A stretch of 64,000 nt of DNA, from positions 1 to 64,000 of IMG/VR virus record IMGVR_UViG_3300032731_000668; one strand, 5' to 3'. This DNA is from a virus. Its lineage: Duplodnaviria > Heunggongvirae > Uroviricota > Caudoviricetes. Positions 22,723 to 54,147 of this stretch are shown here, piece by piece. Made by a program: the position numbers and the translations under genes. Below the pieces are notes generated by a model. The model saw nothing but the letters and a program-made list of their open reading frames with translations. It was not told the origin of the DNA and made no database searches. Positions within the stretch are counted from its first letter, which is position 1; every line of letters starts with the position of its first letter.

Positions 22723-23925
22723 ATGGCACACATCAATCTCGCTAATGCTAAAAAGGTAAAGAACGACGAATTTTATACGCAATATTTTGATATTCAGAAA
22801 GAAATCTCGACATATTTAGAACACAACCCTGATGTCTTTCGGGGTAAGACTGTGCTTTTACCCTGTGATGACCCTGAATGGAGCAACTTTACCAAGTTTT
22901 TTGCCCAAAATTTTGAGCGGTTCGGGTTGAAAAAACTCATCAGTACAAGCTACGCTGTAAATAGCAAAACCTATAAGGGCGGATACCAACCAACGCTCTT
23001 TGAAACAAGTGCCCTCCAATTTGACGAAAATAAAACTGTGGAAAATGGGAAAATTTTCACACTGACCCACGACAAGACAGGTGACCGCAAGGTTGATGTG
23101 AATGACCTAGAATGGCTCTATCTTAAGGGTGACGGCGATTTTCGTAGCGACGAGATCAAAAAGTTTCGTGACGAAGCCGACATCATCATTACTAATCCAC
23201 CATTTTCGCTTTTCCGTGATTTTTTGGCATGGATAATGGAGGCTGACAAACAATTTGTAATAATAGGTAACCTAAATGCCATTACCTATAAAGAGGTATT
23301 CCCGTTACTTAAAGAAAACAAGGTTTGGTTAGGTAATAATTGTAAAGTAAATGGTGGTGCAATGTTTTATGAGATACCAGAAGACATTGCTAACTTGGAC
23401 CAAGTTCGTGAAATAAGGACAAACGAAATTGGCAAGGAGGTTTATATTACCAGGGTACAAGGTGTTCGTTGGTTTACCAATCTCGACCATGGGCGTCTTC
23501 ATCAACCCTTACCACTAATGACAGAGTCAGAGGTAGTCAAGTTCGTAACGAAAAAGCCATTTGTTAAATATGATAATTACGATGCAATAGAAGTATCGAG
23601 AGTTAAAAACATTCCAAGCGATTACAACGGAGTAATGGGAGTACCGGTTAGCTTTCTCGATAAATACAGTCCAGAACAATTTAAAATTTTGGGGGCAACA
23701 CAAAGAGGTTGTCATGATGAATTCCCTGACACAAAAAAATATAATGACTATAGCGAAGTAAGACAAAATGGGGAAAATACAGGTTCTTCTGGCGGAAAAA
23801 CAAATGAAAATGGGAATTTAGTTGGTAATGACGGAAAAAAGAATTATTTCATAAATGAAGATGGCAGAATAATTCAATCTGTGTATCAAAGAATATTCAT
23901 CAGACATAGGAATAAAACAACATGA
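22723..23925 (+). CDS. N6-adenine DNA methyltransferase, gamma-class-like (400 aa)
   Basis: DEFYTQ (FxTP-like motif X), catalytic [14 protein letters not shown]; local GC about 45%. Confidence 0.85.
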
Positions 23926-25091
23926 AAACAATCTTAATAACTGACATTACTGTCAAAAATATCTGCGAAGGATTTGTCTATAACGAACTTGAGGGCAAAG
24001 GACTATTTGGCTTGTCTGGCAAGTTAACCATCCAGCCAGAGTATCAGCGTAACTATATTTATGCATCCGATGGTGGTAAAAAAGAAGTTGCGGTGATTGA
24101 ATCCCTGCTGAAAGGATACCCATTGGGCTTAATTTATTTTAACAAAGTGAGTGATGAAAAACTGGAAGTGCTTGACGGTCAACAACGTATAACCAGTTTT
24201 GGACGATTTGTAACTAACAAATTTGCTATAAAAGATGAAAATGGCATGGAGCAATATTTCAGTGGTATTGCGGCTGATAAGCAATCTAAGATCTTGACAA
24301 CGGAACTGCTTATTTATGAATGCGAAGGGATTGAAAGTGAGATAAAAGAGTGGTTCAAAACGATCAATATTGCTGGCATACCACTTAATGATCAGGAACA
24401 GCTGAACGCCGTGTTTTCTGGGTCATTCGTGACACTTAGTAAGGCGGAGTTTAGTAACAGTCAGAATGCCAATATCCAAAAATGGAGAGCGTATATTAGA
24501 GGCAGTGTCAATCGACAGCATTTATTGGAACGCGCTCTTGATTGGGTTAGCAAAGGCAACATTGACGATTATATGAGCCGCCATCGGTACGACAACAACA
24601 TTACAGAGTTAAAAACGTATTTCAACAGTGTAATTGATTGGGTTTCAAGCGTATTTGTTGATGTAGAGGGTGAGATGCGCGGATTGGAGTGGGGACGATT
24701 GTACGAAGAGTATCATAATACATCTTATGACCCTGCAAAGGTTTCAAAAGATGTGCAAAAACTTTATGGCGATCCGTATATTAAAAACCGTAAGGGTATT
24801 TTTGAGTACATTCTTGGCGGTTCAATTGATACAAAATTATTAAATGTCCGAGTCTTTGATGATGCAACCAAGAATAATGTTTATTCAACACAGACTGCTA
24901 AGACCGAAGCTAAAGGTGAATCAAACTGTCCGCTCTGTGCTATTGGATATGATGCCAACAAAAGTAAAATCTGGAAGTTGAACGAAATGGATGCCGACCA
25001 TGTATCGGCATGGAGCAAAGGTGGCGCAACAGATATTAGCAATTGTCAAATGTTATGCAAAACTCACAATAGGGCAAAAGGAAATAAATAA
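23922..25091 (+). CDS. DUF262 (DGQQR ParB-like) + C-terminal HNH nuclease, GmrSD/type IV restriction-like (389 aa)
   Basis: LDGQQRITS motif in the N-terminal domain; C-terminal CPLC...[12 protein letters not shown]...[13 protein letters not shown] motif. Confidence 0.85.
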
Positions 25092-25292: not shown

Positions 25293-25321
25293 TTGACAGG
25301 TTTTGAAATATATGATATAAT
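25293..25321 (+). promoter_or_regulatory. consensus sigma70-like promoter TTGACA-17-TATAAT
   Basis: TTGACA 25293-25298, TATAAT 25316-25321. Confidence 0.65.
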
Positions 25322-25337
25322 AATCAAGAGGAAATAT

Positions 25338-25529
25338 ATGGATAATAAAATTCCAATAGAAGAATTGCTTGAAGACTTTGGGGTAGAGAATGAGGACGAG
25401 CTGTACGCCAAATTAACGGATGATTCTAACACTATTCCATGCATCGTATGCGGGAAAGAAATTCCGATAGAAGAAATTAGAATTGTTGGTGATGATCCAT
25501 ATTGCAAGAGGTGCAAGAATAGTTTATGA
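25338..25529 (+). CDS. small zinc-ribbon protein (63 aa; CIVCG...CKRCK)
   Basis: AAGAGGAAATAT RBS before ATG 25338; the track ORF 25293 would begin inside the promoter. Confidence 0.5.
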   Translation: MDNKIPIEELLEDFGVENEDELYAKLTDDSNTIPCIVCGKEIPIEEIRIVGDDPYCKRCKNSL

Positions 25530-25858
25530 ACATTATTTTGAAATGGGATAGTAGTAGAGTTACTATAGAACAATTCGCCAATATGTGTAGATCTTATGCG
25601 GGACTGATGCCACAATATCAGATAGTTTATCATCTAATTGATATGGTTGCAACAATGGCTTTTGATACAGATATTAATGATTATGTTGATAAAGATGTTG
25701 CTATAAAAGTTTTGACTAAATTTAGTTATTATGATTTTTCTTTATTGGCCAAAGAATTAAATAAACAACAAGAAGAAAACGGGTTATTATTGATGGCACA
25801 AAATTTATTTGGAAATAATGTTAAGTTTTCGGAAACTAAAAAACACAATAAAATATAG
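25526..25858 (+). CDS. hypothetical protein (110 aa)
   Basis: ORF overlapping the previous stop. Confidence 0.55.
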   Translation: MNIILKWDSSRVTIEQFANMCRSYAGLMPQYQIVYHLIDMVATMAFDTDINDYVDKDVAIKVLTKFSYYDFSLLAKELNKQQEENGLLLMAQNLFGNNVKFSETKKHNKI

Positions 25859-25978
25859 ATTTTATGAGGAAATAAGATGAACATATATATTCAAATAGTT
25901 GTTGGTCTGTTGATAATAGTGGCATTTTTTTGCGTTATTTGTATCGGAGTTCTAATGATACAAATGCTAAAAATGAAG

Positions 25979-26007
25979 TAAACACAATAAAATGTACGTT
26001 TTATCAT
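25979..26007. repeat. intergenic inverted-repeat element (AACACAATAAAAT...TTTTATCAT)
   Basis: taaacacaataaaatgtacgttttatcat. Confidence 0.7.
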
Positions 26008-26099
26008 ATAAAAGGAGAATCATATATGGATTAACAGAAAAAATATTGAAGAAAAATAAATAATAAAATAAAAAATAACAATAGGAAGGTTTTATATAG

Positions 26100-27203
26100 A
26101 TGAATAACAATATAGATACACAGAAAGTTAACAGATGGATTAGAAGAGCCGTAAGTGGTGTGGTTGTTTTAATCATACTAGTTGTTTTTTTGGCGAATTC
26201 GTTTGTTTTAAAACGTGTTGAGCCTACTGAAATGGCAATTATTACTAGAGGCGGACAATTACAAAGTGTAGTTGGTTCGGGTACATATACTCAGTTTGGT
26301 TTTTTGAAAAAATCTAAACTCGATACATTCTCGGTTGCTATTATTCCTTTGAATTCTACTGACCCCGAAGTTTTGACGAAACCAACAGACAACAGTAAGA
26401 ATGATGAAAGTTCCGTTGGTATGCCTGTTGGATTTGAAATTGTTGGCGATATTCAGATTCCCACTGATCCCATAACTCTGATGAATAATTGGGCAAGATA
26501 TGGAGTAATGTATAAAAATCCTGAAACTCTTGAAGAAAGAGTTGATAGTTTTACAAGAGAAGCTATGAAAGTTTGTGGTGGTGCATTCACTTTTTATGAA
26601 ATCACTGCCTTAAGACGTGTCGAGTTTGCTACCTGTATTTCTGATGCTGTTACAGACAAGGTTGAAAAAGAGTATAGCGTAAGGGTAACGAATGTTACAA
26701 TTGCTAATATTATTTTAAGTAATACAGTTCTTGAACGTATCAACGCAGTTATTGACTTACAACAGCAGGTGGACTTAGAAAAACAAACAGCAGAACTAGC
26801 TACTGCTACCGGTGAACGAAAAGAAGCGGAAAATACGGCTTCAATTCAAGCTACAATGGCTACAGCGATAGAACAAGCAAAACAAGACGCAATTCTTGCT
26901 GTCCAAGAAGCTATAAGTGTTGCCTCACGACAAGAAGTTGTTATTGCCAAAATAGACTTGATTGCATTACAACAAGATTTGGCAGACGAAGAACTCACAT
27001 TGGCAAAAACAAAAGCTGTTGAACATCTTTCTAATGAAGCTCGTATGGCTGAAATTTTGCAAGGAAGTCCTAACTATTACAGTTTTTTGGTCGCAGAGTT
27101 GAACTCAAAAGCATTACAGAATGTTGACAAATTAATTGTTTCAGATGAAGGAACCGCACCACAAATTGTTATGGGCATAGATACAGTATATTCAGTAAAA
27201 TAA
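26100..27203 (+). CDS. SPFH/band-7 (prohibitin/stomatin/HflK-like) membrane protein with coiled-coil tail (367 aa)
   Basis: N-terminal TM, then a band-7-like core (VEPTEMAIITRGGQL...), then an Ala/Gln/Glu-rich coiled coil; GC-richer than the phage backbone. Confidence 0.7.
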   Translation: MNNNIDTQKVNRWIRRAVSGVVVLIILVVFLANSFVLKRVEPTEMAIITRGGQLQSVVGSGTYTQFGFLKKSKLDTFSVAIIPLNSTDPEVLTKPTDNSKNDESSVGMPVGFEIVGDIQIPTDPITLMNNWARYGVMYKNPETLEERVDSFTREAMKVCGGAFTFYEITALRRVEFATCISDAVTDKVEKEYSVRVTNVTIANIILSNTVLERINAVIDLQQQVDLEKQTAELATATGERKEAENTASIQATMATAIEQAKQDAILAVQEAISVASRQEVVIAKIDLIALQQDLADEELTLAKTKAVEHLSNEARMAEILQGSPNYYSFLVAELNSKALQNVDKLIVSDEGTAPQIVMGIDTVYSVK

Positions 27204-27223
27204 ACTATAGATAGAATTAATAG

Positions 27224-27279
27224 GGAAGGCTTTAGTTGGCGGAACATTACGTTTGCGAGTTCGAATCTCGCCCTTCCTT
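27224..27279 (+). tRNA. tRNA-like element lacking a D-arm (acceptor stem + anticodon-like hairpin + canonical T-arm), about 56 nt; pseudo-tRNA or recombination remnant
   Basis: 7-bp acceptor gggaagg/ccttcct, 5-bp hairpin with a 7-nt loop, T-stem gcgag/ctcgc with the consensus T-loop TTCGAAT; too short for a canonical tRNA and no CCA. Confidence 0.45.
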
Positions 27280-27581
27280 ATAAATAAAAAAATAAACATA
27301 AAGGAGGCAACATAAACATGATAAACTGGACTGATTTTTTATGCCTTGTTTTACCGCTTGTAATATTATTAATAGTAGCATTATGTGTACCGCTTATAAG
27401 GAAAAAATAAAATGACTCAAAAAATAAAAGAAATGCGTGTTTTTAAAGACGGAGATGCATGGTGTTTTGTGTTATCGGATTTTAAAAATTTACAAGAGTC
27501 TCCTTCTGCATGGCTTGATGAAACAGACACCAATATGGATATTATTCATGAACAATTGGTTGAAACAATGGAAGAAGACGG

Positions 27582-27606
27582 ATAAAATGTATATTTTATG
27601 TGGTTT
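27582..27606. repeat. intergenic inverted-repeat element (ATAAAAT...ATTTTATGTGGTTT)
   Basis: ataaaatgtatattttatgtggttt. Confidence 0.7.
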
Positions 27607-28365
27607 AAGGCAATAGTGAATAAGAAAAATTTGTTAATATGGGGTATTATAGGGTTGTTGTTATTTGGTGCATGCGGACAACCCTTTGATCTTCAAGTAT
27701 CTGAGCGGTTGCAATCTGCTCCTATAGCAAATATTGCCGAAGAAGCTATTGCGGAAGTCGCTGTTTGTGAGACTCCCCAGACTCGTTTTTTGAAAGATTA
27801 TCCCGATATTGCAATTGCACTTGGGGACAGTATTTCTATTGAAGATTATGATAGCGAAGTTGTCCAACTACACCTAACCGATTTGAATAAATTTCCTCCA
27901 GATATTCTAAGGGAAATTAAAAATTTTGGGTATAGGATTAGAGTTGGGGATAAAACAGTTACCGATTTCTCTGGGTTTGAGCATTTGAAAGGTTTGACCC
28001 CTCGTGGATGGGAAGGGACAGGACTAACTTGGGATGATGCTGCGGGGTGCAATAGCCGAAGCAAAATAACTGTAATCCTTGGTAATGGAATTCATTCATC
28101 TTCGAGTCTTGCATTACATGAAATAGCTCATGCGATTGACCATGTAATGGGAATAACCAAACTCCCCGAAATGGAATATTTTCATAAAAAAGCGTACAAT
28201 GGACTTGATGAATATTTTAAGCAAGATGGTCCTGGTGGTGAAATAGGAATGAAGGAGATGTTTGCTGAAAGCGTAGCCAATATTTTTCAAGATCAAGACT
28301 ATTGGAGTAAAGAATATGAACAGTTTGTTAAAGATATATTAGGAGTAAAAGAGGGTGGTTATTGA
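27598..28365 (+). CDS. secreted lipoprotein zinc metalloprotease, HExxH (anthrax lethal factor / M34-like) (255 aa)
   Basis: Signal peptide plus LLFGAC lipobox; LALHEIAHAIDH zinc-binding motif; GC-richer. Confidence 0.7.
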   Translation: MWFKAIVNKKNLLIWGIIGLLLFGACGQPFDLQVSERLQSAPIANIAEEAIAEVAVCETPQTRFLKDYPDIAIALGDSISIEDYDSEVVQLHLTDLNKFPPDILREIKNFGYRIRVGDKTVTDFSGFEHLKGLTPRGWEGTGLTWDDAAGCNSRSKITVILGNGIHSSSSLALHEIAHAIDHVMGITKLPEMEYFHKKAYNGLDEYFKQDGPGGEIGMKEMFAESVANIFQDQDYWSKEYEQFVKDILGVKEGGY

Positions 28366-28397: not shown

Positions 28398-28426
28398 TTG
28401 ACAAATATTGAATTATGTGATACAAT
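28398..28426 (+). promoter_or_regulatory. sigma70-like promoter TTGACA-17-TACAAT
   Basis: TTGACA 28398-28403, TACAAT 28421-28426. Confidence 0.6.
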
Positions 28427-28656: not shown

Positions 28657-28845
28657 ATGACTTATGTATATCAATGTAAAAAATGCAAAAAAGAATTTGA
28701 ACTTGTTGCTGGTTTTTTAACAATCTTATCATTAGAAAAACAATGTCCTCATTGTGGATCTAAAAAAGTGGCAAGAAAATTTGTTCCTATTGATTTTATT
28801 TTAAAGGGAAATGATTTTTATAGAAACAACAAAGAAGACAAGTGA
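28657..28845 (+). CDS. FmdB-type zinc-ribbon protein (62 aa)
   Basis: YQCKKCKKEF...CPHCGS pattern. Confidence 0.5.
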   Translation: MTYVYQCKKCKKEFELVAGFLTILSLEKQCPHCGSKKVARKFVPIDFILKGNDFYRNNKEDK

Positions 28846-30149
28846 ACATAGATCAAAAAATTATAAATTTTATTAAAGAGATAGAAAAAGATTTACGCAT
28901 TCCTGCATGTGTTCATAATAACTTTGACAATTTTGTACCCTATGAGACCCCTGTTTACTATTCTGGGCCATATTGGAATGATTTAGAAATTTTGGTGGCA
29001 ATTAAAACATTGATTTTGGGCGATTGGATTAGCGCAGGAAAGAATGTTCAAGAATTCGAAAAACAATTTGCAAAAGTTATTGATGAAAAATATGGAATAA
29101 TGGTAAACAGTGGTTCATCTGCAAACCTAGTAATGATTACAGCTTTAAAAAAATATTTTAATTGGAATGATGGTGATGAGATAATAGTGTCAGCAGTGGG
29201 GTTCCCGACTACAACCTCTGTTATTGTCCAAAACAATTTGACACCCATATTTATTGACATAGAAATGCAAACTCTAAATTTTGATTTGAATTTAATTAAA
29301 GAAAAAATTACCAAAAAAACAAGAGCAATATTCCTGTCCCCCGTTTTAGGCAATTCTCCCGATATCGATGTAATAAAAGAAATATGTATGAAGTATAACC
29401 TACAACTAATTTTAGATGATTGCGATTCTCTGGGAAGTAAATGGGATGGAAAATTTTTAAATAAATACTGTGTTGCTTCTTCTCATTCCTTTTATGCAGC
29501 CCATACAATTTCCACAGGAGAAGGTGGAATGATTGTTACTAGCAATGCGAAAATTGCTAAAATTGCCAGAAGTTTAGTGAACTGGGGTCGTGATTGCCAT
29601 TGTTATGGAAGTGAAGGATTAATTCCTGATGGGGCTTGCGGACATAGATTTTCAAATTGGCTCAGAAATTATAACGGGATTGTAGATCATAGGTATGTTT
29701 TTTCTAATATGGGATATAATTTCAAGCCATTGGATTTGCAGGGTGGTATCGGAAACGTCCAATTGACTAAACTAGAAGAAATATATCAAAAAAGAAATAT
29801 AAGCAAACAAAAAATCACCGAAATATTTAGTCGAATAGAGGGTGTAGATAACCCGATACAATTAAATAAGGCTAATACTATATGGTTCGGCACCCCTTTT
29901 ATCTGTCAAAATAAAAAATTAAAACAAAATCTTGTGTCATTTTTAGAAAGTAACAAGATTCAGACCAGAAATTATTTCGCGGGAAATATATTACTTCATG
30001 AAGGATATGAAACTTTAGGTAATTTCAATGATTATCCTAACGCAAATTTAGTGTTGGACTTAGTATTTTTTGTCGGGGCTTCGCCTCATTATAATGATAA
30101 AATATTTGACTATTTTAAATCTGTTTTGAAGGAATTTAAAAATGAATAA
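28842..30149 (+). CDS. DegT/DnrJ/EryC1/StrS-family sugar aminotransferase (435 aa)
   Basis: DGDEIIVSAVGFPTT...IFIDIE and SFYAAHTISTGEGGMIVT (PLP-lysine region) motifs. Confidence 0.85.
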   Translation: MNIDQKIINFIKEIEKDLRIPACVHNNFDNFVPYETPVYYSGPYWNDLEILVAIKTLILGDWISAGKNVQEFEKQFAKVIDEKYGIMVNSGSSANLVMITALKKYFNWNDGDEIIVSAVGFPTTTSVIVQNNLTPIFIDIEMQTLNFDLNLIKEKITKKTRAIFLSPVLGNSPDIDVIKEICMKYNLQLILDDCDSLGSKWDGKFLNKYCVASSHSFYAAHTISTGEGGMIVTSNAKIAKIARSLVNWGRDCHCYGSEGLIPDGACGHRFSNWLRNYNGIVDHRYVFSNMGYNFKPLDLQGGIGNVQLTKLEEIYQKRNISKQKITEIFSRIEGVDNPIQLNKANTIWFGTPFICQNKKLKQNLVSFLESNKIQTRNYFAGNILLHEGYETLGNFNDYPNANLVLDLVFFVGASPHYNDKIFDYFKSVLKEFKNE

Positions 30150-30840
30150 TGGCATTATTGTTCTTGGATATGGATTACTCGGAAAAGAAATAACAAAACA
30201 AACCGATTGGAACTATATAAGTCGCAAGGAACACGGTATCGATTTTAATAAAACTGATTGGTATCATCACATTCAACGTTATGATACAATTATAAATTGT
30301 ATTGCAAATACTAACACATATTCACACGAAAGAGAAGACCATTGGCCGACCAATTATATAAGCGTAATGAATTTAGTAGACTGGTGTAATGAAAATAATA
30401 AAAAAGCTATACAAATTTCTACAGACTATATTTACAGTGGGTCTAATCGTAATGCCTCTGAGGAAGACATTCCTCTACATAATAAAACTTGGTATACATA
30501 TACAAAACTACTTAGCGACGCCTATGTACAAGCAAGGGCAAAAAATTATTTGTTGATTCGAACATCTTTTAAGCCAACACCTTTTCCATACCCCGAAGCA
30601 ATTGTTACTCAGACTGGTAATTTTGATTATGTCGATAAAATATCAAAATTGATTATTGAACTTATTAATAAAAATGCTTTCGGTGTTTTTAATGTGGGAA
30701 CACGGAGGAAAACTATATATGATCTAGCAACTAAAACTAATCCAAATATTATAGGTGCATTTCGAATATTAAATAAAGAAATGCCAAGAGATGTAACAAT
30801 GAATGTTTCAAAAATGGAGAATTTTTTAAATGAAAGTTAG
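30142..30840 (+). CDS. RmlD-like dTDP-4-dehydrorhamnose reductase family protein, short form (232 aa)
   Basis: ISTDYIYSG (RmlD STDYVF motif), YTYTKLLSD (YxxxK), LLIRTSF. Confidence 0.7.
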   Translation: MNNGIIVLGYGLLGKEITKQTDWNYISRKEHGIDFNKTDWYHHIQRYDTIINCIANTNTYSHEREDHWPTNYISVMNLVDWCNENNKKAIQISTDYIYSGSNRNASEEDIPLHNKTWYTYTKLLSDAYVQARAKNYLLIRTSFKPTPFPYPEAIVTQTGNFDYVDKISKLIIELINKNAFGVFNVGTRRKTIYDLATKTNPNIIGAFRILNKEMPRDVTMNVSKMENFLNES

Positions 30841-31570
30841 CATAGCAATTCCAGTTTATGAAATGGGTGGAAGAGGTACAGAATTTTTAAAATACTGTCT
30901 TCGCTCTATTTTATTGCAAACGCATCCTGTGTATGAGATAGTCATCTCAGATCATTCAAAAAATGATGACATTCTTGATCTTTGTAGTCCATGGCCACCA
31001 AACGTAAAATATGTTCGAAATAAAGAAAATTACGGTGTTTTTGCGTCCAACATGAATAATTGTTTTAGTTATTGTACCGGCGATATTATTAAAATTATGC
31101 ATCAGGACGACTTCTTTTATAGAATGGATTCTTTATCGAAAATTGTAAACAATTTTGATTTAGATAAAGGTTGGTTACTAACTACATATTATCATTCTAG
31201 AAATGGGAAAGATCTTTTTAAATTACATACCCCAAGTATTAAGGAATGTCCTTTGTTTATTAATAAAATTGGTGCACCTACCTGCCTAACAATTAAGAAT
31301 GAAGATATTCTTTATTTTGATGAAAATTTAAAGTGGTATGTAGACAGTGATTACTACGTAAGGTTGTTGACAAAATATGGACTCCCTGTGATTTTAGAAA
31401 AGCCAACAGTGGTACAGCGATTATGGGAAGGACAGGTTACTAATACAATAATACATAAGGATGTGATTACAGAAGAAATATTGTATTTATATAAAAAGCA
31501 TGACGTAAAACTAGAAGACCTGACTGAAATAATAGGAAGACTTGGGTATTGTGAGGCATATGAAGATTAG
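30830..31570 (+). CDS. family 2 glycosyltransferase (246 aa)
   Basis: VSIAIPVYEMGGRG...ISDHSKNDD GT-A N-terminal signature; paralog of the next gene. Confidence 0.75.
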   Translation: MKVSIAIPVYEMGGRGTEFLKYCLRSILLQTHPVYEIVISDHSKNDDILDLCSPWPPNVKYVRNKENYGVFASNMNNCFSYCTGDIIKIMHQDDFFYRMDSLSKIVNNFDLDKGWLLTTYYHSRNGKDLFKLHTPSIKECPLFINKIGAPTCLTIKNEDILYFDENLKWYVDSDYYVRLLTKYGLPVILEKPTVVQRLWEGQVTNTIIHKDVITEEILYLYKKHDVKLEDLTEIIGRLGYCEAYED

Positions 31571-32258
31571 TATTGCGATTCCTACTTATGAAATGAGTGA
31601 TCGTGGAGTCGAATGTTTAGACTACAATTTTAAAAAAATTCACCAACAAACGTTCAAAGACTTCAACGTGATCATCTCTGATCATTCGAAAGATGATAAA
31701 ATTTTTCATTTATGTAATATGTGGGGCAAAAAATTGAATATCAAATATATCAAAAATGAAAAAGATAGAGGTTCGCTATCAAGTAACTTAAACAGTTGTA
31801 TAAAAAATTGTAGCGGAGAAATAATTAAGTTCATAATGCAGGATGATTATTTTTACCATAAAAATTCATTAGAAAAAATTGTAAATAGGTTTGGTATAGG
31901 CAAAAGATGGCTGGTGTCTTCGTATTTTCATACAAATGACAGAATAAAACTTTTTCGTTTGCATATACCTGAAATTAGTAAAGACATGCTTCTTATTAAT
32001 CGTATCGGAACCCCTACATGTCTTACTATAAAAAATAATATTGATATTAAATTTGACTTGAAATTAAACTGGTATGTAGATTCAGATTATTATACACAAT
32101 TATATAAAACATATGGTAAGCCAGTTATTTTAAGAGATCCAACTGCGGTACAACTTCTTTGGGAAGGCCAAACAACGAACACAATTATCAATGAGAAAAT
32201 TATTAAAAATGAAGAAATATATCTTATGAAAAAATATGGGGCATATAGAAATGGATAA
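31560..32258 (+). CDS. family 2 glycosyltransferase, tandem paralog (232 aa)
   Basis: ISIAIPTYEMSDRG...ISDHSKDDK; about 45% identical to 30830-31570. Confidence 0.75.
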   Translation: MKISIAIPTYEMSDRGVECLDYNFKKIHQQTFKDFNVIISDHSKDDKIFHLCNMWGKKLNIKYIKNEKDRGSLSSNLNSCIKNCSGEIIKFIMQDDYFYHKNSLEKIVNRFGIGKRWLVSSYFHTNDRIKLFRLHIPEISKDMLLINRIGTPTCLTIKNNIDIKFDLKLNWYVDSDYYTQLYKTYGKPVILRDPTAVQLLWEGQTTNTIINEKIIKNEEIYLMKKYGAYRNG

Positions 32259-32910
32259 AATTCAAATTCCTGAATTAACCCTTATCGCTGTATCATCTAT
32301 AAAAATAGATGAAACTATTTTGGCTTTACAGAAGAGTTATAAAGATATTTTATTTGGATCTATAAAACTAATTACACATGAACGCCCAGAAATTTTACCT
32401 AAAGAAATTAGTTTTGAAGAATGTCCTAAATTAGATGATATAAATAAATATAATCATTATGTTTTTATAGAATTAGGTAAACACGTAAAAACAAGTCATT
32501 GTTTATTAATCCAACATGATTCTTGGGTATTAAGCCCCAAGTTATGGGACGATGATTGGTTGCAATATGATTATTGTGGTAGTCCGTGGGAATGGAAAAC
32601 TAATTCATACCAAACAGATTATGGAGAACATGTCAGAGTAGGAAATGGCGGATTTTCTCTGAGATCTAAAAAGCTTTTAGATATACCTAAAAAACATAAT
32701 ATGTATCTAAAATCTGAGAAGGGGTGGAAAAACGAAGATGGACAAATTTGCGTTTATTGGCGAAAAGAATTATTAGATTATGGAATCAAATATGCACCCG
32801 TTGAAATAGCATCAAAATTTTCTTATGAAAATCCAGTTCCTGAGAATAACTTTGGGAAGATGAAAACTTTTGGATTTCATAAGAATTTAAATACAGGGAA
32901 TAAGAGATAG
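32236..32910 (+). CDS. hypothetical protein in the glycan locus (224 aa)
   Basis: ORF overlapping the previous stop; no confident motif. Confidence 0.55.
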   Translation: MGHIEMDKIQIPELTLIAVSSIKIDETILALQKSYKDILFGSIKLITHERPEILPKEISFEECPKLDDINKYNHYVFIELGKHVKTSHCLLIQHDSWVLSPKLWDDDWLQYDYCGSPWEWKTNSYQTDYGEHVRVGNGGFSLRSKKLLDIPKKHNMYLKSEKGWKNEDGQICVYWRKELLDYGIKYAPVEIASKFSYENPVPENNFGKMKTFGFHKNLNTGNKR

Positions 32911-32916
32911 GCCAAA

Positions 32917-33903
32917 ATGATTATTTCTAAAACAGTTTTTGTTCAAGTGGCAGGACAACGTTCTTATTATATTAATAAAGGATACAATCTGACGCCATAC
33001 ATGTACAAAAATAGAAAGGGGAAAATGGTAATACCCCGCGGAACAATTATTGAAGTAAGGGTAGACGACCTTCCGCCGCGAAGTTCAAGAAAAGTTTTAG
33101 CCCAATGCGATAATCCAAAATGTAAAAAAGAACGTTGGGTAGAATACGAAAAGTATACCTCTCTATGCCATAGATGCGCTCTACAAACAGAATCTTATAA
33201 AACTAATAATGGAAATGCAAATAGAGGTAAAAAAAGAACTGCTGGCCAAAAAGAAAGAAAGAGAAAACCAAACTATCTGGTTAGAGGCAAAAATAACATT
33301 AATTGGAATAAAAATATATCTGAAAAAGACAGGCTAAAAACAAACGAAAAAAGTAGGAATAGCGTAGAATATAGAGCGTGGAGATTGTCTGTTTTTAGAA
33401 AAAATTGTTATCAATGCCAAAATTGTGGGTATACCGGTAGAAAAATAAATGCCCATCATATAGAAAGTTATTTTACAAATAAAGACTTAAGGTTTGATGC
33501 TGACAACGGAATAGTATTGTGTACAAATTGCCACAAATTGTTTCACAGCACATATGGAAAAACAGGAAATCATAAGTACCAACTCGATAAATTTTTAAAA
33601 AATAATAAAAACAAAAAAGAATTTGTTAAGTTAAAATTTGATATTCATAAAGATACTCGCCAAGGAAGAAAAAATGTAAACAACAATGATTCCAGCATAT
33701 ATGTTGGTGTATCAAAAAATAAAAACAGAAAAAAATGGGAGGCCGGAATATACCATGATAAAATAAAATATTATTTAGGAATGTTTGAATATGAAGTTGA
33801 GGCGGCAATGGCCTATAATGAAGCGGCGTCAGAAATATGGGGATGGAAAGCAATCTTAAATAAAATAACAGAAGACGATATTATTAAATTATGGGAAAAC
33901 TAA
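32917..33903 (+). CDS. HNH homing endonuclease with C-terminal AP2 DNA-binding domain (328 aa)
   Basis: CQNCGY...HHIESY...NGIVLCTNCHKLFH HNH motif; YVGVSKNKNRKKWEAGIYHDKIKYYLGMFEYEVEAAMAYNEAA AP2-like. Confidence 0.85.
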   Translation: MIISKTVFVQVAGQRSYYINKGYNLTPYMYKNRKGKMVIPRGTIIEVRVDDLPPRSSRKVLAQCDNPKCKKERWVEYEKYTSLCHRCALQTESYKTNNGNANRGKKRTAGQKERKRKPNYLVRGKNNINWNKNISEKDRLKTNEKSRNSVEYRAWRLSVFRKNCYQCQNCGYTGRKINAHHIESYFTNKDLRFDADNGIVLCTNCHKLFHSTYGKTGNHKYQLDKFLKNNKNKKEFVKLKFDIHKDTRQGRKNVNNNDSSIYVGVSKNKNRKKWEAGIYHDKIKYYLGMFEYEVEAAMAYNEAASEIWGWKAILNKITEDDIIKLWEN

Positions 33904-34625
33904 TGCCTTCTATTGCTTTTCAAACATCGTGTTACGAAAAATCATATAAACATTTACTTAAAAATGGAGTTCTAAATCACTATCTTTCATTATTTCAAGA
34001 TATTGATTTTGAAGAAAAGACGGTTATAGTAAATAATGTTTCAGACCATAATAATATCAAATCCTTATTTAAAAATTTCAATAATATCGATTTTATTTTT
34101 TCTGAAAAAAATCCAGAAACAGTTTTAAGTTTTTTCAATTTATCTTTGTTGGATTTTCAGATAGGATTATATTATTCTATTCAGCATTTTACGGGAATTT
34201 ATTATACACAATGCGATTACTTGTTTCATGTTAGTGAAGATTGTGGGATCGATAATCTTGATTCTAACTTTATAAAAGAATCTGTAGAAATGCTAGAATC
34301 AAATGAAAAATATATTATTGCTATGCCGAGATGGTGTGAAGACGACAACGCAATTGAAAAAACTGAACCGGAGAGTGATAAATTTTTTATACAATATGGA
34401 TTTACTGATCAAATATATATTATAAAAACAAAAAAATTCAAAGAAGATATATACCATTATAGCCACCCTATGTCTGAAAGATATCCTAAGTATGGTGGCG
34501 AATGCTTTGAAAAAAGAATCGATTCTTTTATGAGATGCAATCAACATTATGGAGTTGTACATAAAAATTATATTTATGACAGCAAACATTATGATGCAAT
34601 AATAAAACAATATAAGGAGATATAA
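33891..34625 (+). CDS. hypothetical protein in the glycan locus (244 aa)
   Basis: ORF overlapping the previous stop. Confidence 0.55.
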   Translation: MGKLMPSIAFQTSCYEKSYKHLLKNGVLNHYLSLFQDIDFEEKTVIVNNVSDHNNIKSLFKNFNNIDFIFSEKNPETVLSFFNLSLLDFQIGLYYSIQHFTGIYYTQCDYLFHVSEDCGIDNLDSNFIKESVEMLESNEKYIIAMPRWCEDDNAIEKTEPESDKFFIQYGFTDQIYIIKTKKFKEDIYHYSHPMSERYPKYGGECFEKRIDSFMRCNQHYGVVHKNYIYDSKHYDAIIKQYKEI

Positions 34626-34628
34626 AAA

Positions 34629-35978
34629 TTGAAAAATAATAATCCATACGGAATGAAAGTTCCAGAATCTTTTTTTGTTGTCTCTAATTGGAATAACGAT
34701 GTTTCTTGGGTAGAAAAATATACAGATAACTATATTATATATGATAAAAGTAACACGTTGCCAGCCAATGATAGAACCATTAAACTAAAAAATGTTGGCT
34801 ATAATGTTTATGATATGGCTCATTTTATTGTCAACAATTATGATAATCTCCCCGAACTAACTGCCTTTCTTCAGGGAAATCCCTTTGACCATTGCAAGAA
34901 AGAAACATTCGATAGGTTGATTTATAACACATGTTTTACTCCACTTGAAGATTATACAGATGTGCCAGAATCAAACGCCCATATAAAAGATGTTGACGGT
35001 GGCTATATGGAAATTAATAATTCTTGGTATTTCAGAACGCATAGACAAGAACATGGTGCCGAAGTTGAAAAATATGTAACATCATATAATCGATTTCTAG
35101 ATGAAATATTCGAAAGTCCAGAGCATTTAAAATGGATTAGGTTTGCGCCTGGCGCGCAATATATTGTACCAAAAGAAAATATATTGTTTTATAGTAAAGA
35201 ATTTTATAGAAAATTGATGAGGTATGTTGACTATCATAGAATACCGTCGGAAGGATTCGCTTTAGAACGAGCAATGTATTATATTTTCACTAATAGATGG
35301 AGAGAAAGAATGAATGATGAGAAAAAAGAGTTAAATGAATTAGACATATTGGCAAGAAAGTATGGGACAGATAAAAGAACCAACGACACACTCCCAAGCA
35401 TTTATCATGGGTACACAGATACTTATTATAATTATTTATTTCCCGGAAAACTTGGGATAAAGAATCTGTTAGAAATTGGTGTAAGTAAAGGGTCATCTCA
35501 TTATATGTGGGCAGATTTTTTACCTAATGCTATGATTTATGGAATCGATAATTTTTTAGATCCTTCCTGTACTGTCAGTAAAGAGGAACTTGAATCAAAT
35601 CCACGAATAAAGATTATTGTTGGCGATCAATCAGATAAACTTGTTTTGAATAAATTTAAAGAAATTCCGTTAGATGTTATAATAGATGACGGTTCTCATT
35701 TTTCCTGGGATCAACAAAGAAGTTTCGATGTTCTTTGGGACTTTTTATTGCCAGGAGGATATTATTTTTTTGAGGACTTGGGGGAAAGTTTTAATAATGA
35801 CTTTAGAGAATTTGAGGATATGCGTTCTGCCACCGTTAGATGGCTACATACAATGAAAAAAGGAAAGGTTCCGTTTTCATATTATACTAGAGAAAGCAAG
35901 ATGGAAAGAATTTTTAAAGAGATTCTATCAGTAAAAGCTTTTGGCGAACTTGTTGTAATCCAGAAAAAGATTATATGA
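34629..35978 (+). CDS. two-domain protein: N-terminal domain paralogous to 36565-37212, C-terminal class I SAM methyltransferase (CmcI/TylF-like) (449 aa)
   Basis: LLEIGVSKGSS...IIDDGSH SAM-MTase motifs; N-domain shares LPELTAFLQGNPFDHCKKETFDRLIYNTCFTPLEDY with the 36565 ORF. Confidence 0.65.
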   Translation: MKNNNPYGMKVPESFFVVSNWNNDVSWVEKYTDNYIIYDKSNTLPANDRTIKLKNVGYNVYDMAHFIVNNYDNLPELTAFLQGNPFDHCKKETFDRLIYNTCFTPLEDYTDVPESNAHIKDVDGGYMEINNSWYFRTHRQEHGAEVEKYVTSYNRFLDEIFESPEHLKWIRFAPGAQYIVPKENILFYSKEFYRKLMRYVDYHRIPSEGFALERAMYYIFTNRWRERMNDEKKELNELDILARKYGTDKRTNDTLPSIYHGYTDTYYNYLFPGKLGIKNLLEIGVSKGSSHYMWADFLPNAMIYGIDNFLDPSCTVSKEELESNPRIKIIVGDQSDKLVLNKFKEIPLDVIIDDGSHFSWDQQRSFDVLWDFLLPGGYYFFEDLGESFNNDFREFEDMRSATVRWLHTMKKGKVPFSYYTRESKMERIFKEILSVKAFGELVVIQKKII

Positions 35979-36568
35979 ATAAAAAAGAAGTATTAGAACA
36001 TGCATTGTCGTTTAAGTATGGCGGGATGTTGGAAGTTGAATTGGGTTATGTCTATGACATATGCGCCAACAAAAACGTTTTAGAGTTGGGAAGCATGGTA
36101 GGCATGAGTAGCTATGTTATTGCTTCTGTCGCAAAAAGTCTTTCATGTGTTGATGTATGGTCTGATACATGGGAACATCTAGCACACGATCCAATACAAC
36201 AAAAGATTTACGAGCAATTTACAGGTGTTATTTTATCTATGCATGAAAGTTTTAAAAGAAACTGCAAAACTTTTATTGATTCTAAAAAAATTAGAATGTA
36301 CAAGGGAAATACAAGAGAGATGGTCGATAAATTCTTAGATGAAAGCTTTGACGTTATTTTAATAGATGCCGACCATTCTTATGAAGGTGTATTACGTGAT
36401 TTTAATCTTTATCAAAATAAAATAAAAGATAATGGATATATTGTTTTTCATGATTATGGTGATTCTATGTGGACAGGAATTGCCCAATTGGCAAATGAAA
36501 TGGCTTCTCAAAATAAGATAAAAATAGTGGGAAGAGTTGAAAGAATAGGAGTGTTTAAAAAAATATGA
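35975..36568 (+). CDS. class I SAM-dependent O-methyltransferase (197 aa)
   Basis: VLELGSMVGMSS (motif I) ... ILIDADHSYEGV ... IVFHDY. Confidence 0.75.
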   Translation: MNKKEVLEHALSFKYGGMLEVELGYVYDICANKNVLELGSMVGMSSYVIASVAKSLSCVDVWSDTWEHLAHDPIQQKIYEQFTGVILSMHESFKRNCKTFIDSKKIRMYKGNTREMVDKFLDESFDVILIDADHSYEGVLRDFNLYQNKIKDNGYIVFHDYGDSMWTGIAQLANEMASQNKIKIVGRVERIGVFKKI

Positions 36569-37212
36569 AACAACCAAAAGCTAAAATAATTATAAGTCGC
36601 TTCAAAGAGGATTTTGATTGGGTAAAAGAATATACCGAAGATTATCTTATATATAATAAAGGTGAGCCTATTGATGATCCACATATAATAAATACAAAAA
36701 ATATTGGAGGAAATCAAAGAGATATTTTTAAGTTTATCCATGATTTTTATGATGACCTACCCGATCTGATGGCTTTTATGCAGGCATATCCATTCGACCA
36801 CTGTAAAAAAGAAACGTTTGACAAACTAATTTATAACGAGTGTTTTACTTCGCTTGAGGACTATGGGGTAATACCCGCAAACGCATATGAAAAAAGAGAT
36901 CACGATGGCGGGTTCCTGGAAAGAAATAATAGCTGGTATATAGAAGCCAACAATGCAACCTACAATGTTGGTTGTAAATATTCTTCTTTTGATCAGTTTA
37001 TGGAAAAATTCTTTTCAAACTATAAAACAGGTGCACATGTTAGATTTGCGCCAGGTTCTCAATATATTATAGAAAAAAAACAAGCGTTACATTATCCAAA
37101 AATATTTTGGAGAAGTTTAATGAATGAACTTCCGGAGAACTTTATGTCTGAAGCACATATTATTGAAAGATCTTTATGGACGATACTGCAATGTGGCTTA
37201 ATAATGAGGTAG
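36565..37212 (+). CDS. hypothetical protein paralogous to the N-domain of 34629-35978 (215 aa)
   Basis: Shared conserved block ...AFMQAYPFDHCKKETFDKLIYNECFTSLEDY. Confidence 0.55.
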   Translation: MKQPKAKIIISRFKEDFDWVKEYTEDYLIYNKGEPIDDPHIINTKNIGGNQRDIFKFIHDFYDDLPDLMAFMQAYPFDHCKKETFDKLIYNECFTSLEDYGVIPANAYEKRDHDGGFLERNNSWYIEANNATYNVGCKYSSFDQFMEKFFSNYKTGAHVRFAPGSQYIIEKKQALHYPKIFWRSLMNELPENFMSEAHIIERSLWTILQCGLIMR

Positions 37213-37215
37213 ATT

Positions 37216-38142
37216 ATGAATTATAAAGAATATAGACCAGGCGTACACAAATTATTACGTCATTTAGGACATTTAGATTCCATTGTTAAAGGAGTCCCCG
37301 TAGCCCCAATTCATATTTCTGTTTGGCCAACCAATAAATGTCAATTAAATTGTGATTATTGTTGTTGTAGAAACACAATGCGAAATGATTCTGAGCTAGA
37401 TATCGAGCTATATAAAAAGGCATTGCTTATTTTTTCAAAATATGGGACAAAGGCTATAGAAATGTCCGGTGGGGGCGAACCTCTTTTATGGAAACATATA
37501 GACGAAGGAGTTGATTTTGCACATTCGATTGGGATGAAACAATCTTTGATAACTAATGGACTTGCCCTAGCGGATACATCCGTAGACACTTTACGCAAGT
37601 TTGAATGGATTAGGATTAGTGTTCAATCGGTAATTCATGCAAAAAAGATAGACTATGATTCCATACCAGTAAAAACCAGTTTATCATATATGGTTTCTAG
37701 TAATATTTGTTTATCTGATTTAATGGATCTACATGAATTTTCTAAAAGTATAAATATCCCAACGAGAATAGCTGTAGTTCGCCCGTGTTCAAAAGAAAGA
37801 GTAAGTGAAATAGAAAATATTGTTGACAATTTAGGGGCACCGGTTTTCTTTTCTAATAAAAAGTTAGGCAAGCCTAAAGGATGTTACATGGCATGGATAC
37901 GTGCCGCAATAGATTGGAATGGCAACTTTTTTCCGTGTCCTTCGATTCAATTAAATAAAGAGAACGAAGGATTTATTCCCGACAGTTTTATCCTATGCAA
38001 CATTAAAAATATAGAAAAGTGGATATTAAATAACTCCCCGCATGATTTAGGATATCAATGTTCATTTTGTAATTGTGGCAAAGAAGAAAATGATTTTATA
38101 CATGAATTATTGGAGGACACTATAGATGCCGATTTCGTTTAA
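37216..38142 (+). CDS. radical SAM enzyme with Cys-rich C-terminal (SPASM/twitch-like) region (308 aa)
   Basis: CQLNCDYCCC (CxxxCxxC) cluster; glycine-rich GGGEPLL; extra C-terminal cysteines. Confidence 0.8.
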   Translation: MNYKEYRPGVHKLLRHLGHLDSIVKGVPVAPIHISVWPTNKCQLNCDYCCCRNTMRNDSELDIELYKKALLIFSKYGTKAIEMSGGGEPLLWKHIDEGVDFAHSIGMKQSLITNGLALADTSVDTLRKFEWIRISVQSVIHAKKIDYDSIPVKTSLSYMVSSNICLSDLMDLHEFSKSINIPTRIAVVRPCSKERVSEIENIVDNLGAPVFFSNKKLGKPKGCYMAWIRAAIDWNGNFFPCPSIQLNKENEGFIPDSFILCNIKNIEKWILNNSPHDLGYQCSFCNCGKEENDFIHELLEDTIDADFV

Positions 38143-38773
38143 ATTAGATGGCTCTTTTTATGATGAAGACTATTTTGAAAATGGAAGAGCCACCAAAAAA
38201 AGTTGGTATACAAACTATCGTTGGTTGCCGCAAAGAAGTTTCCGAGAAGCATTCGTCTATCTTGACTATTTAAAACTAGATAAAGACAGTTATGTTTTAG
38301 ACTATGGTACAGCGAAGGGTTTTTTGGTAAGAGCTTTTCGTGAATTAGGTATAAAGGCTGATGGTTGTGATATTAGTAAATACGCACTATCATTTGCTCC
38401 AGAAGGATGTTGGAATTGCTCAGACTTATCACAGTGGAAAAATCGTAATTATTCCCACGTTGTTGTCAAAGATGTTTTTGAACACCTAAATGAAAGTCAA
38501 TTAGAAAGCACATTTGATCAATTGTCTAAAATTTCATTAAAAATGATGTGTGTTATTCCAATGGGAGATAATGGTACTTACAGAATAAAAGAATATCATA
38601 CAGATGTATCGCATCTAATTGCAGAGAATGAATCTTGGTGGCGCAATAAGTTCTATAACTCAGGATGGAAAATTATTGGAGAATCCTATTATGTCAAAGG
38701 ACTAAAAGATAACTGGATTTATATTCCTGAAGGAAATCGTGTTTTTGTGTTGGAGAACAATGATAAGAAATAG
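38126..38773 (+). CDS. class I SAM-dependent methyltransferase (215 aa)
   Basis: VLDYGTAKGFLVRAF...GCDIS motif I / post-I. Confidence 0.7.
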   Translation: MPISFKLDGSFYDEDYFENGRATKKSWYTNYRWLPQRSFREAFVYLDYLKLDKDSYVLDYGTAKGFLVRAFRELGIKADGCDISKYALSFAPEGCWNCSDLSQWKNRNYSHVVVKDVFEHLNESQLESTFDQLSKISLKMMCVIPMGDNGTYRIKEYHTDVSHLIAENESWWRNKFYNSGWKIIGESYYVKGLKDNWIYIPEGNRVFVLENNDKK

Positions 38774-39473
38774 TGAAAAAGAATTCTTTAAGTCAATTAA
38801 AAATACTTGTAAGGTTATTTTTGATATAGGTTGCAGGGAAGATATATATTATATTAAAAATAGCGAAGGTAAAGAAATTTATTTATTTGAACCAAATCTT
38901 ATCTCTTTTAATAATTGTAAGAAAGAGATAAATGCTTTTATTAAAGAATATGGCACCAACTTGAATAAAATTCGTCTATATAACTTTGGAATAGGAAATA
39001 TAAGTGAGACCAGACACTATTATGCAGACACTCAATCATTCTTTAAAAGACATCCTTATCCAAGTGTTGATTTCAAGCCTTGTGTTGCTATCATCAAGAA
39101 GTTTTCCGAGTTTTTAAAAGAGAACGACATTAAGTTTATTGATTTTTTAAAAATAGATACAGAGGGCTGCGAACCAGATATATTGTTGGACGATATTGAA
39201 TTTATAAAAACTAAAGTTCAATATATTCAGTTCGAGTGGGCGACTACATGGTTTGATAGAGATGACAATATTGCTTTTGCAGATATATTTAATGAGTATA
39301 TAAATAATTTTGAATTTTGGTTTTTATATGATGAAGACCATCCTTTATCTAGCAAATATGAAGAAATGTTATCTTCTATAATAACCCAAGAAGATTTCGA
39401 AGAATTGAATGAGAATATTTGTTTGGGGTATGGATTAGATATCGTTATGATAAAAAGAAAGAGGAATAAATGA
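38739..39473 (+). CDS. FkbM-family methyltransferase (244 aa)
   Basis: FDIGC...YLFEPN and LKIDTEGCEPDIL signature. Confidence 0.75.
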   Translation: MFLCWRTMIRNSEKEFFKSIKNTCKVIFDIGCREDIYYIKNSEGKEIYLFEPNLISFNNCKKEINAFIKEYGTNLNKIRLYNFGIGNISETRHYYADTQSFFKRHPYPSVDFKPCVAIIKKFSEFLKENDIKFIDFLKIDTEGCEPDILLDDIEFIKTKVQYIQFEWATTWFDRDDNIAFADIFNEYINNFEFWFLYDEDHPLSSKYEEMLSSIITQEDFEELNENICLGYGLDIVMIKRKRNK

Positions 39474-41831: not shown

Positions 41832-41846
41832 GGAGTATACTAATAT

Positions 41847-42713: not shown

Positions 42714-42737
42714 AAAATCATTGAGGAGTATATTATA

Positions 42738-46585: not shown

Positions 46586-46601
46586 GGACTTATAGAGAAA
46601 T

Positions 46602-54118: not shown

Positions 54119-54147
54119 TTGACAAAACGCAAATAGTATGATATGAT
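54119..54147 (+). promoter_or_regulatory. sigma70-like promoter TTGACA-17-TATGAT
   Basis: TTGACA 54119-54124, TATGAT 54142-54147; upstream of the recombinase gene. Confidence 0.65.

Follow-up and report, generated by a model that had tools for sequence, protein, structure and literature searches.

A predicted exported M34-type protease and an SPFH protein encoded by neighbouring accessory genes of a phage-like metagenomic sequence

Why would a bacteriophage encode a membrane protein of the SPFH/band 7 type next to a zinc protease related to anthrax lethal factor, and do the two products act together? This question is raised by positions 26,100 to 28,365 of the IMG/VR record IMGVR_UViG_3300032731_000668, of which we analysed the first 64,000 nucleotides (called the window in the following). 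Based on our data, both genes are real and intact, and they are variants or members of gene types that have already been seen in phages. We read them as two independent accessory cassettes, of which one would provide an early-expressed SPFH scaffold and the other an exported, membrane-tethered protease cutting envelope proteins of the host; for this reading as a whole we see the chances as evenly balanced. The most interesting points are a predicted exported protease resembling the Pro-Pro endopeptidases (PPEPs) in a virus, and a link between Chloroflexota and phage SPFH genes that can serve as a clue to the host.

A preliminary description of the locus had placed the two genes as accessory cargo in a phage-like genome, and the genomic setting agrees with this. 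The window has a GC content of 31.2% and a coding density of about 92%, with nearly all genes on the plus strand. It encodes a DNA sliding clamp, an ATP-dependent ligase, DNA methyltransferases and several homing endonucleases, together with an integrase-family gene, a PurZ-like gene, a sugar-modification cluster of about 20 kb and further proteins with PHROG matches. The protein with the best PHROG match is an AAA+ ATPase, which is at most 30% identical to its counterparts in jumbo phages of Brevundimonas, Caulobacter and Serratia. Identical copies of both focal genes are found on metagenomic contigs of up to 168 kb, and from its gene content we take the window for a section of a large, uncultivated phage with a GC content of about 31% and 168 kb in its longest contig. 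Searches of GenBank phages, both on the DNA level and by tblastn with the two proteins, gave no match, scans of IMG/VR with both proteins yielded no confirmed relatives, and the sources of all occurrences are environmental metagenomes or metagenome-assembled genomes (MAGs).

Family, fold and N-terminus of the protease

For the protease, the family assignment of the preliminary description, an M34-type enzyme like anthrax lethal factor, was confirmed. The open reading frame (ORF) ending at position 28365 matches Pfam ATLF (PF07737) well above the cut-off (E=8.3e-18, 65.2 bits, cut-off 27.4), and this is the sole domain found. The HExxH motif is present as LALHEIAHAIDH, and the catalytic domain starts near residue 55, after a signal-like segment. 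Using the numbering of the 255-residue version of the ORF and 150 domain sequences to assess family conservation, we found H174, E175, H178, Y206 and E220 conserved in 149-150 of the 150 sequences. On the residue level, the predicted catalytic set of HExxH, glutamate ligand and oxyanion tyrosine is complete. The S-loop P135-R136-G137-W138 is also a family feature, its P-R-G-W being conserved in 126-144 of the 150 sequences, and the 13-residue stretch PRGWEGTGLTWDD around it is identical to the one of PPEP-2. In the alignment with the PPEPs, P135, R136, W138 and W145 fall on the S-loop and on the Pro/Trp positions of the S1 pocket; in PPEPs, where these residues shut over the substrate, roles for the S-loop Lys/Arg101 and Trp103 (Trp/Tyr103) and for the S1-pocket Pro/Trp have been described (PMC12828418).

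The predicted fold is in line with this assignment. The best sequence matches in the PDB are PPEP-1/Zmp1 and PPEP-2 (E ~1e-15). An AlphaFold2 (AF2) model calculated from a 65-sequence alignment reached a predicted local distance difference test score (pLDDT) of 88.4 overall and more than 95 over residues 50-245, while an earlier alignment of three sequences had given an unusable pLDDT of 36. The model consists of an N-terminal helix, a low-confidence linker of about 35 residues and the catalytic domain. In a Foldseek search of the PDB with this model, matches 1-41 were all PPEP-1, PPEP-2 or PPEP-3 (E = 2.6e-9 to 3e-6, target TM-score up to 0.77, 25-27% identity), followed by anthrax lethal factor. 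A fold search of BFVD returned one match with E=3e-5 and otherwise weak matches to polyvalent proteins.

An exhaustive HMMER search collected 813 family representatives. The window protease forms its own cluster with two close homologues, P0002 (79% identity) and P0003 (73%), and the next match follows at E=3.8e-33. The nearest sequence relatives beyond this cluster are C-terminal domains of phage Mu-F and portal proteins, which score 131 bits compared to 61 bits for PPEP-1. Of 77 long relatives, 24 are fused to phage head proteins (17 Phage_Mu_F, six portal and one minor-capsid protein), and others carry ART, NUDIX or 2'-5' RNA ligase domains; a bacterial toxin-delivery domain was found in none of the 77. 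Such fusions are built like MuF polymorphic toxins and polyvalent proteins, among which zincin-like peptidase domains are common (PMC5576092, PMC5512222). Besides, six of the short ATLF-domain relatives (P0026, P0034, P0054, P0062, P0152, P0155) share an N-terminal glycine-rich segment of the form KGGxGSGxxGHxGRPGKxGGS, and one Mu-F fusion (P0035) contains an intein.

The N-terminus of the protease depends on the choice of the start codon. An ATG at 27598 would give the 255-residue version, and we rejected it on three grounds: it sits within the full form of an intergenic hairpin repeat (27582-27607, ATAAAATGTATATTTTATGTGGTTTA), in the related contigs L007 and L009 a TGA directly follows the equivalent ATG, and the homologues P0002 and P0003 begin at the position of a GTG at 27616. 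Therefore, we place the start at this GTG, and the gene (27616-28365, plus strand) encodes 249 instead of 255 residues. The shortened protein opens with the hydrophobic segment MNKKNLLIWGIIGLLLFGAC, in which LFGAC fits a permissive lipobox pattern. A hydrophobic N-terminal segment is kept in P0002 and P0003 but the cysteine is not, so the conserved feature is, as judged from the alignment, a hydrophobic export or anchor segment and not lipidation. Such a segment is present in only three of 68 short relatives and in essentially none of 81 fused ones. The window protease is in this respect unusual among its relatives, being free-standing and predicted to be exported. Taken at sequence level, it represents a phage-associated M34 domain that stands alone, is putatively exported and has an S-loop resembling the one in secreted PPEPs.

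The SPFH protein, its carriers and the adjacent tRNA-like fragment

The second gene (26100-27203, plus strand) encodes a protein of 367 residues that matches Pfam Band_7 (PF01145) above the curated cut-off (E=1.3e-11, 45.3 bits, cut-off 23.6), as had been proposed. The match covers residues 39-232 and nearly the whole profile (positions 2-173 of 176), and among the PHROG families the protein hits phrog_200 (E=6.5e-13). A single N-terminal transmembrane (TM) segment spans residues 18-36 (Kyte-Doolittle 2.72). The charges on its two sides (+4/-1 before and +3/-2 after the segment) point to an N-in orientation. The tail contains a stretch of 83 residues free of proline and glycine (239-321), which is probably helical; of the long coiled coil claimed in the preliminary description this long stretch stands, but the heptad periodicity read from sequence features is only weak.

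The protein belongs to a small subfamily. A word-indexed search of 5.8 billion proteins found nine clusters, which are 62-89% identical to each other and share 170 invariant alignment columns, and a profile built from them retrieved the same nine clusters followed by one protein at 26% identity. Out of 185,579 species-representative genomes, a single one carries a member, a MAG of the Chloroflexota. The carriers comprise Chloroflexota-type contigs with 49-54% GC (L001, L002, L011-L013) and AT-rich phage-like contigs, namely the window, L008 and L010, whose proteins are 76% (L008) and 67% (L010) identical to that of the window. Three sequence groups within the subfamily are about equidistant from each other, so that these distances indicate neither a direction nor a number of transfers. 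At the cellular loci L001, L011 and L012, the SPFH gene lies in a conserved neighbourhood with two acetyltransferase/SCP2 genes on the opposite strand and a gene for an RRM_1 protein; in L001 a gene for an S1-domain protein lies upstream in addition.

None of the partners known from other SPFH systems was detected. Neither a partner protease gene nor NfeD accompanies the SPFH gene at any of the loci, among them L001, L011 and L012. In L002, a second Band_7 gene lies about 5.7 kb away across four opposite-strand genes and thus outside the same operon. A Pfam scan of the window neighbours of the SPFH gene revealed neither NfeD nor a second Band_7 protein. Comparison with E. coli HflK, HflC and QmcA by hhalign was not significant (probabilities of 8.3%, 0.6% and 1.6%), and against PDB sequences the protein gave one chance-level match (E=0.64) and the profile none. 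Neither the SPFH protein nor the protease is matched by models of NCBIfam or PADLOC.

The view that neither gene is expected in a phage was overstated. T4-like phages were reported to carry SPFH ORFs as early as 2006 (PMC1524935); together with the PHROG family match, these ORFs make clear that a phage SPFH gene is not new in kind, and relatives of the protease are fused to phage head proteins.

Directly behind the SPFH gene lies a tRNA-like fragment of 56 nt (27223-27278, plus strand). It has an acceptor-like stem (GGGAAGG/CCTTCC(T)) and a perfect T-arm (GCGAG-TTCGAAT-CTCGC, 27255-27271) and folds with a free energy of -20.9 kcal/mol (z = -2.2). Thus, the tRNA-like element reported before is there as a stem and T-arm, but it has no anticodon arm; ARAGORN detected no tRNA in the whole window, and the only Rfam match of the fragment is to the 3' end of tmRNA at 12.6 bits. 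In L010, nine intact tRNA genes (Phe, Leu x4, Cys, Ile, Asp x2; L010:4546-6746) directly follow the SPFH gene, an arrangement that fits an AT-rich phage compensating for a GC-richer host. Because of this array in a related contig, we regard the fragment as a probable decayed tRNA and the relic of such an array. Alignment with the nine L010 tRNAs identified no parent, as only the T-arm aligns. An alternative interpretation as an attP core was rejected, since the fragment contains both acceptor strands, lies 27 kb away from the integrase-family gene and has its counterpart in the tRNA array of L010.

Cassette structure, proposed role and alternative readings

The two genes are neighbours in the window, but the repeats around them argue for separate histories. 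The intergenic hairpin repeat, roughly AAAAC(C/A)ACATAAAAT-N4-ATTTTAT with an optional GTGGTTTA, has 37 matches throughout the window compared to 0.87 expected. Of 28 distinct copies, 23 are intergenic, and their usual place is at the stop codon of the upstream gene, with 10-40 nt left to the start of the following one. The window becomes homologous to L007 and L009 at 27581 and to L008 at 25981; both points coincide with hairpin repeats, and the DNA upstream of them is unrelated. The gene that precedes the protease gene in L007 and L009 differs from that in the window, and in L010 the SPFH gene is followed by tRNA genes and not by a protease gene. From the breakpoints at hairpins and the different neighbours we conclude that SPFH gene and protease gene are separate cassettes that happen to be neighbours here; as far as this comparison of contigs goes, they are independent accessory ("moron") cassettes in a variable region.

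Their base composition had been described as GC-richer than the backbone. This is correct for total GC, which is 0.365 for the SPFH gene and 0.384 for the protease gene compared to 0.318 on average (ranks 6 and 4 among the 60 ORFs), but the GC content at third codon positions (GC3) is ordinary (z = -0.38 and +0.40, respectively). The excess in total GC therefore comes from the amino-acid composition. A recent foreign acquisition of both genes was rejected on the basis of GC3, and the match to the backbone suggests that both are long resident in the phage lineage.

Regarding expression, we searched for sigma-70-type promoters (TTGACA-17-TGnTATAAT, at least 11 of 12 positions) and found 14 on the plus and one on the minus strand, compared to 2.8 per strand in shuffled sequences (sites include 10148, 17669, 21297, 25293, 28398, 40674, 48751 and 54119). 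This strand bias suggests that the host polymerase transcribes much of the region. A unit of 3.1 kb that contains both genes extends between the predicted promoters at 25293 and 28398, which suggests early expression of this unit by the host polymerase.

Putting these results together, we propose the following scenario. Both genes would be transcribed early by host RNA polymerase. The SPFH protein would insert N-in and, as SPFH proteins do, assemble into an oligomeric membrane scaffold that, in the course of infection, adds to the host's own copy or takes its place. The protease would be exported and stay tethered on the outside of the cytoplasmic membrane, by a lipid in the window phage and by an uncleaved anchor in its relatives, where it might cut proline-containing stretches of envelope or surface proteins of the host. 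The most likely benefit would be the removal of receptor or adhesin proteins, which could lead to superinfection exclusion, to progeny that do not stick to debris, or to release of the cell from its substrate. An analogy is provided by PPEP-1 of C. difficile, which modulates adhesion (PMC8610288, PMC12828418). The tRNA-like piece would be a relic with no role in the pair.

Several observations weigh against this scenario. First, the spacing between the tyrosine and the glutamate ligand is 14 residues instead of the seven in PPEPs, with a conserved loop of the GGPGG type in between, and K219 takes the place of E184 of PPEP-1, the first glutamate of the Glu184-Glu185 tandem. As these two defining features differ from true PPEPs, we file the protein as M34/ATLF and not as PPEP, and a Pro-Pro specificity is not assured. 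Cleavage of a substrate is suggested by analogy, and a Pro-Pro motif is absent from all eight neighbouring products, unlike at the loci of PPEP-1 and PPEP-2. Second, export is predicted from a sequence pattern only, and the cysteine of the lipobox is replaced in both close homologues (LLFGVFG), so that the earlier label "lipoprotein" fits the permissive pattern of the window protein but not its relatives. The nearest sequence relatives are virion-associated and cytoplasmic, which would allow an intracellular role if the N-terminal helix is no signal. Third, the positive-inside bias behind the orientation of the SPFH protein is modest, and the promoters are consensus matches only. Finally, the Chloroflexota carriers of the SPFH gene have 49-54% GC compared to 31% in the phage. 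No virion or structural genes were seen within the 64-kb window, so that the assignment to a phage relies on the replication, homing-endonuclease and PHROG evidence.

Among the alternatives, the best supported one unites both proteins in a single module, in which the SPFH protein would form a cage on the outer face of the membrane, with the tethered protease inside it and under its control, like HflK/C-FtsH or stomatin-NfeD. Among the roles of prokaryotic SPFH proteins, partnership with a protease is the one best established, and E. coli hflK/hflC are annotated as "regulator of FtsH protease". In the window, both genes share the promoter-bounded unit at a distance of 412 nt, and both products are predicted to face the extracytoplasmic side. 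However, the adjacency is not conserved in L007, L009 and L010 or at the cellular SPFH loci, which have no protease neighbour, and a hairpin repeat, the tRNA relic and two small ORFs separate the genes. Together with the lack of significant similarity to HflK, HflC or QmcA and of an NfeD-like protein among the scanned neighbours, this makes a joint module unlikely. A bolder version would see an early two-part envelope module: on the outside of the host membrane, a cage of the Chloroflexota-derived SPFH protein would confine a PPEP-like protease anchored by a lipid, and the enzyme would trim surface or receptor proteins rich in proline. By means of a protease, such a mechanism would destroy receptors or exclude superinfection, and the enzyme would then be the first Pro-Pro-type endopeptidase outside the Firmicutes and the first in a virus; we give this version little credence.

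Alternatively, the protease might not be exported at all and might act, like its Mu-F- and portal-fused relatives, as a virion-packaged or cytoplasmic effector or processing enzyme in the newly infected cell. The higher scores of these relatives (131 bits versus 61 for PPEP-1) and the 24 head-protein fusions among the 77 long relatives speak for this possibility, as do proposals of an autoprocessing or injected-effector role for such domains (PMC5512222, PMC5576092). Nevertheless, the window protein is free-standing, with a hydrophobic N-terminus that its relatives lack, its gene lies in an early-type unit among accessory genes and not among head genes, and the S-loop agrees in length and sequence with that of the secreted PPEPs. 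Hence, an intracellular function is improbable in our view, and the tethered, exported enzyme remains our preferred reading.

A further explanation is lysogenic conversion or virulence cargo, in which a prophage would supply the bacterial host with a beneficial function. It could draw on the integrase-family gene at 54174-55091, on host-type promoters that could act in a lysogen, and on the modulation of adhesion by PPEP-1 in a pathogen. Yet all occurrences stem from environmental metagenomes, neither a prophage junction nor an attachment site was detected, the tRNA-like fragment is unlike an attP core (both acceptor strands are present, and the integrase gene is 27 kb away), and there is no homologue in GenBank phages. 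We thus attach a low probability to this explanation, and nothing points to the virulence role that had been suggested; every source is an environmental metagenome or a MAG.

Defence genes tend to cluster, and the pair lies directly downstream of a type II restriction-modification pair, but a phage-borne defence, abortive-infection or superinfection-exclusion system against other phages is very improbable, because no PADLOC model matches the SPFH protein, the protease or the 57-residue protein between them (which also removes the ground for the abortive-infection module put forward before), and because the restriction-modification pair differs in composition, having the highest GC3, and is separated from the unit by a promoter.

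If the protease is indeed active and exported, the PPEP-like branch of M34 would extend beyond the Firmicutes to a virus, and the locus would provide a phage example of an envelope-directed protease made during infection. The ATLF-like domains known from phages up to now are fused to head proteins, and their presumed place of action is within the cell or the virion. The SPFH gene, on the other side, is one of few sequence links between an AT-rich phage lineage and the candidate host phylum Chloroflexota, from which few phages are known, and the hairpin-bounded cassettes illustrate the shuffling of accessory genes between related phages. Current views are not overturned by these findings; what they offer is an enzyme that can be tested and a clue to the host.

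Surrounding genes and comparison with known systems

All genes of the 3.1-kb unit lie on the plus strand, as do its promoters. The upstream promoter (25293-25321) is a 12/12 match to TTGACA-17-TATAAT with TG extension. The first gene encodes an acidic protein of 63 residues (25338-25529; gene call as in L003, a contig identical to this region) with a weak match to DksA/TraR-type C4 zinc fingers that is below the curated cut-off (PF01258, E=2.5e-4), followed by a protein of 110 residues (25526-25858) that has no family match in the Pfam, PHROG, PADLOC and NCBIfam scans. The repeat scan places a hairpin copy (ATAAAAT-N4-ATTTTAT) at 25848-25865 and another one at 25987-26004, where the homology with L008 starts. 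Between these copies, a hydrophobic single-TM peptide of 34 residues is read from the sequence (25877-25981). On the other side of the SPFH gene, behind the tRNA relic, follows an ORF for a hydrophobic peptide of 30 residues (MINWTDFLCLVLPLVILLIVALCVPLIRKK; 27318-27410) with a strong upstream AGGAGG. Such short single-helix ORFs thus flank the SPFH gene, one per side, and neither is called in the JGI gene list of L003. The SPFH leader contains the mini-ORF ATG-GAT-TAA (26026-26034), which lies 65 nt upstream of the SPFH start, has its own AGGAG at 26013-26017 and is matched by ATG-GGT-TAA in the same place in L008; from this arrangement it may be a translational control element. The last gene before the protease encodes an acidic protein of 57 residues (27412-27585) without a family match, which is not present upstream of the protease gene in L007 and L009. 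Behind the protease gene, a promoter with 11/12 matches (TTGACA-17-TACAAT, TG; 28398-28426) opens the next unit and leads into the sugar-modification cluster.

This cluster runs from 28842 to 48754 (about 20 kb) and includes a DegT aminotransferase, an RmlD-like protein, several GT2, two GT17 and a GT25 glycosyltransferase, DUF5672, two DUF3431 proteins, FkbM-type and other methyltransferases, a radical SAM protein and an epimerase/dehydratase. It is interrupted by homing endonucleases at 32917-33903 (HNH-AP2), 44980-45759 and 46602-47531. Upstream of the unit, the restriction-modification pair (22723-25091) consists of an EcoRI-like methylase (Pfam E=4e-119) and a GmrSD_N+HNH protein, which PADLOC assigns to MTase_II (E=1.6e-87) and REase_II (E=1.4e-79), respectively. 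Since its GC3 is at the top of the window (ranks 3 and 1 of 60), this pair looks recently acquired. The integrase-family gene at 54174-55091 is of the tyrosine type (phrog_1, E=1e-53) and is preceded by the sigma-70-type promoter at 54119; no attachment site was identified for it. Within 57310-58910, an ORF matches phrog_1211, "2-aminooxy adenylosuccinate synthetase" (PurZ-like, E=3.9e-47), and adjoins a phosphoribosyl-transferase-like ORF; judged from this match, it is a possible sign of DNA containing 2-aminoadenine (Z-base). Two ORFs resemble the DNA polymerase III beta subunit (sliding clamp), at 6860-7870 and 10595-11359, the second of which is shorter and gives a weak match only.

The organisation of the region resembles that of T4-like phages, which reportedly contain gene cassettes bounded by promoter-stem-loop (PeSL) elements. 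In both cases, short repeated intergenic hairpins lie near promoters or ribosome-binding sites, and the gene content varies there among related phages. In contrast, the repeat found here has another sequence, no relation to T4 is shown, and its role in recombination is suggested by three breakpoints only.

The SPFH protein shares the Band_7 domain, the N-terminal TM segment and the long helical tail with HflK/HflC, QmcA, YqiK/flotillins and the ORFs of the T4-like phages 44RR, Aeh1 and RB43. It differs from the E. coli proteins HflK, HflC and QmcA in showing no significant profile similarity to them, and tblastn gives no match in GenBank phages. Moreover, no gene for an NfeD or FtsH partner lies near it, and its subfamily is limited to Chloroflexota MAGs and a few AT-rich phage contigs.

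As to the protease, anthrax lethal factor, the founder of M34, has the same Pfam family and fold as well as HExxH, glutamate and tyrosine, but is distant (Foldseek E ~1e-4, 12-17% identity). Lethal factor itself has more than 700 residues (solved chains 661-747 aa) and is a toxin directed against eukaryotes, which protective antigen delivers into the cells of the host. Closest in sequence are the zincin/ATLF-like C-terminal domains of MuF toxins and polyvalent proteins (E = 4e-33 and weaker), which are also phage-encoded and share the loop Y-x-x-Q-x-G-P-G-G-x-x-G-x-x-E. These domains are fused to Mu-F, portal, minor-capsid, ART or NUDIX parts and have no export signals, whereas the window protein is unfused, has a signal- and lipobox-like N-terminus and an S-loop longer by one residue, which is missing in 138 of 150 relatives.

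The third group are the PPEPs themselves, PPEP-1 (Zmp1, C. difficile), PPEP-2 (Paenibacillus alvei) and PPEP-3 (Geobacillus thermodenitrificans), which belong to MEROPS M34 (EC 3.4.24.89) and have been reported only from Clostridiales and Bacillales (PMC8610288). A literature search for phage-encoded Pro-Pro endopeptidases found none. The window protease differs from the PPEPs in an alanine for valine at the S1' position, in being phage-encoded and in having no substrate gene adjacent. In common with them it has a single domain of about 200 residues, which in our case follows a putative export signal, and shares the HExxH motif with the following histidine (HAIDH), the glutamate ligand, the oxyanion tyrosine, the S-loop P-[K/R]-G-W and the S1-pocket tryptophan.

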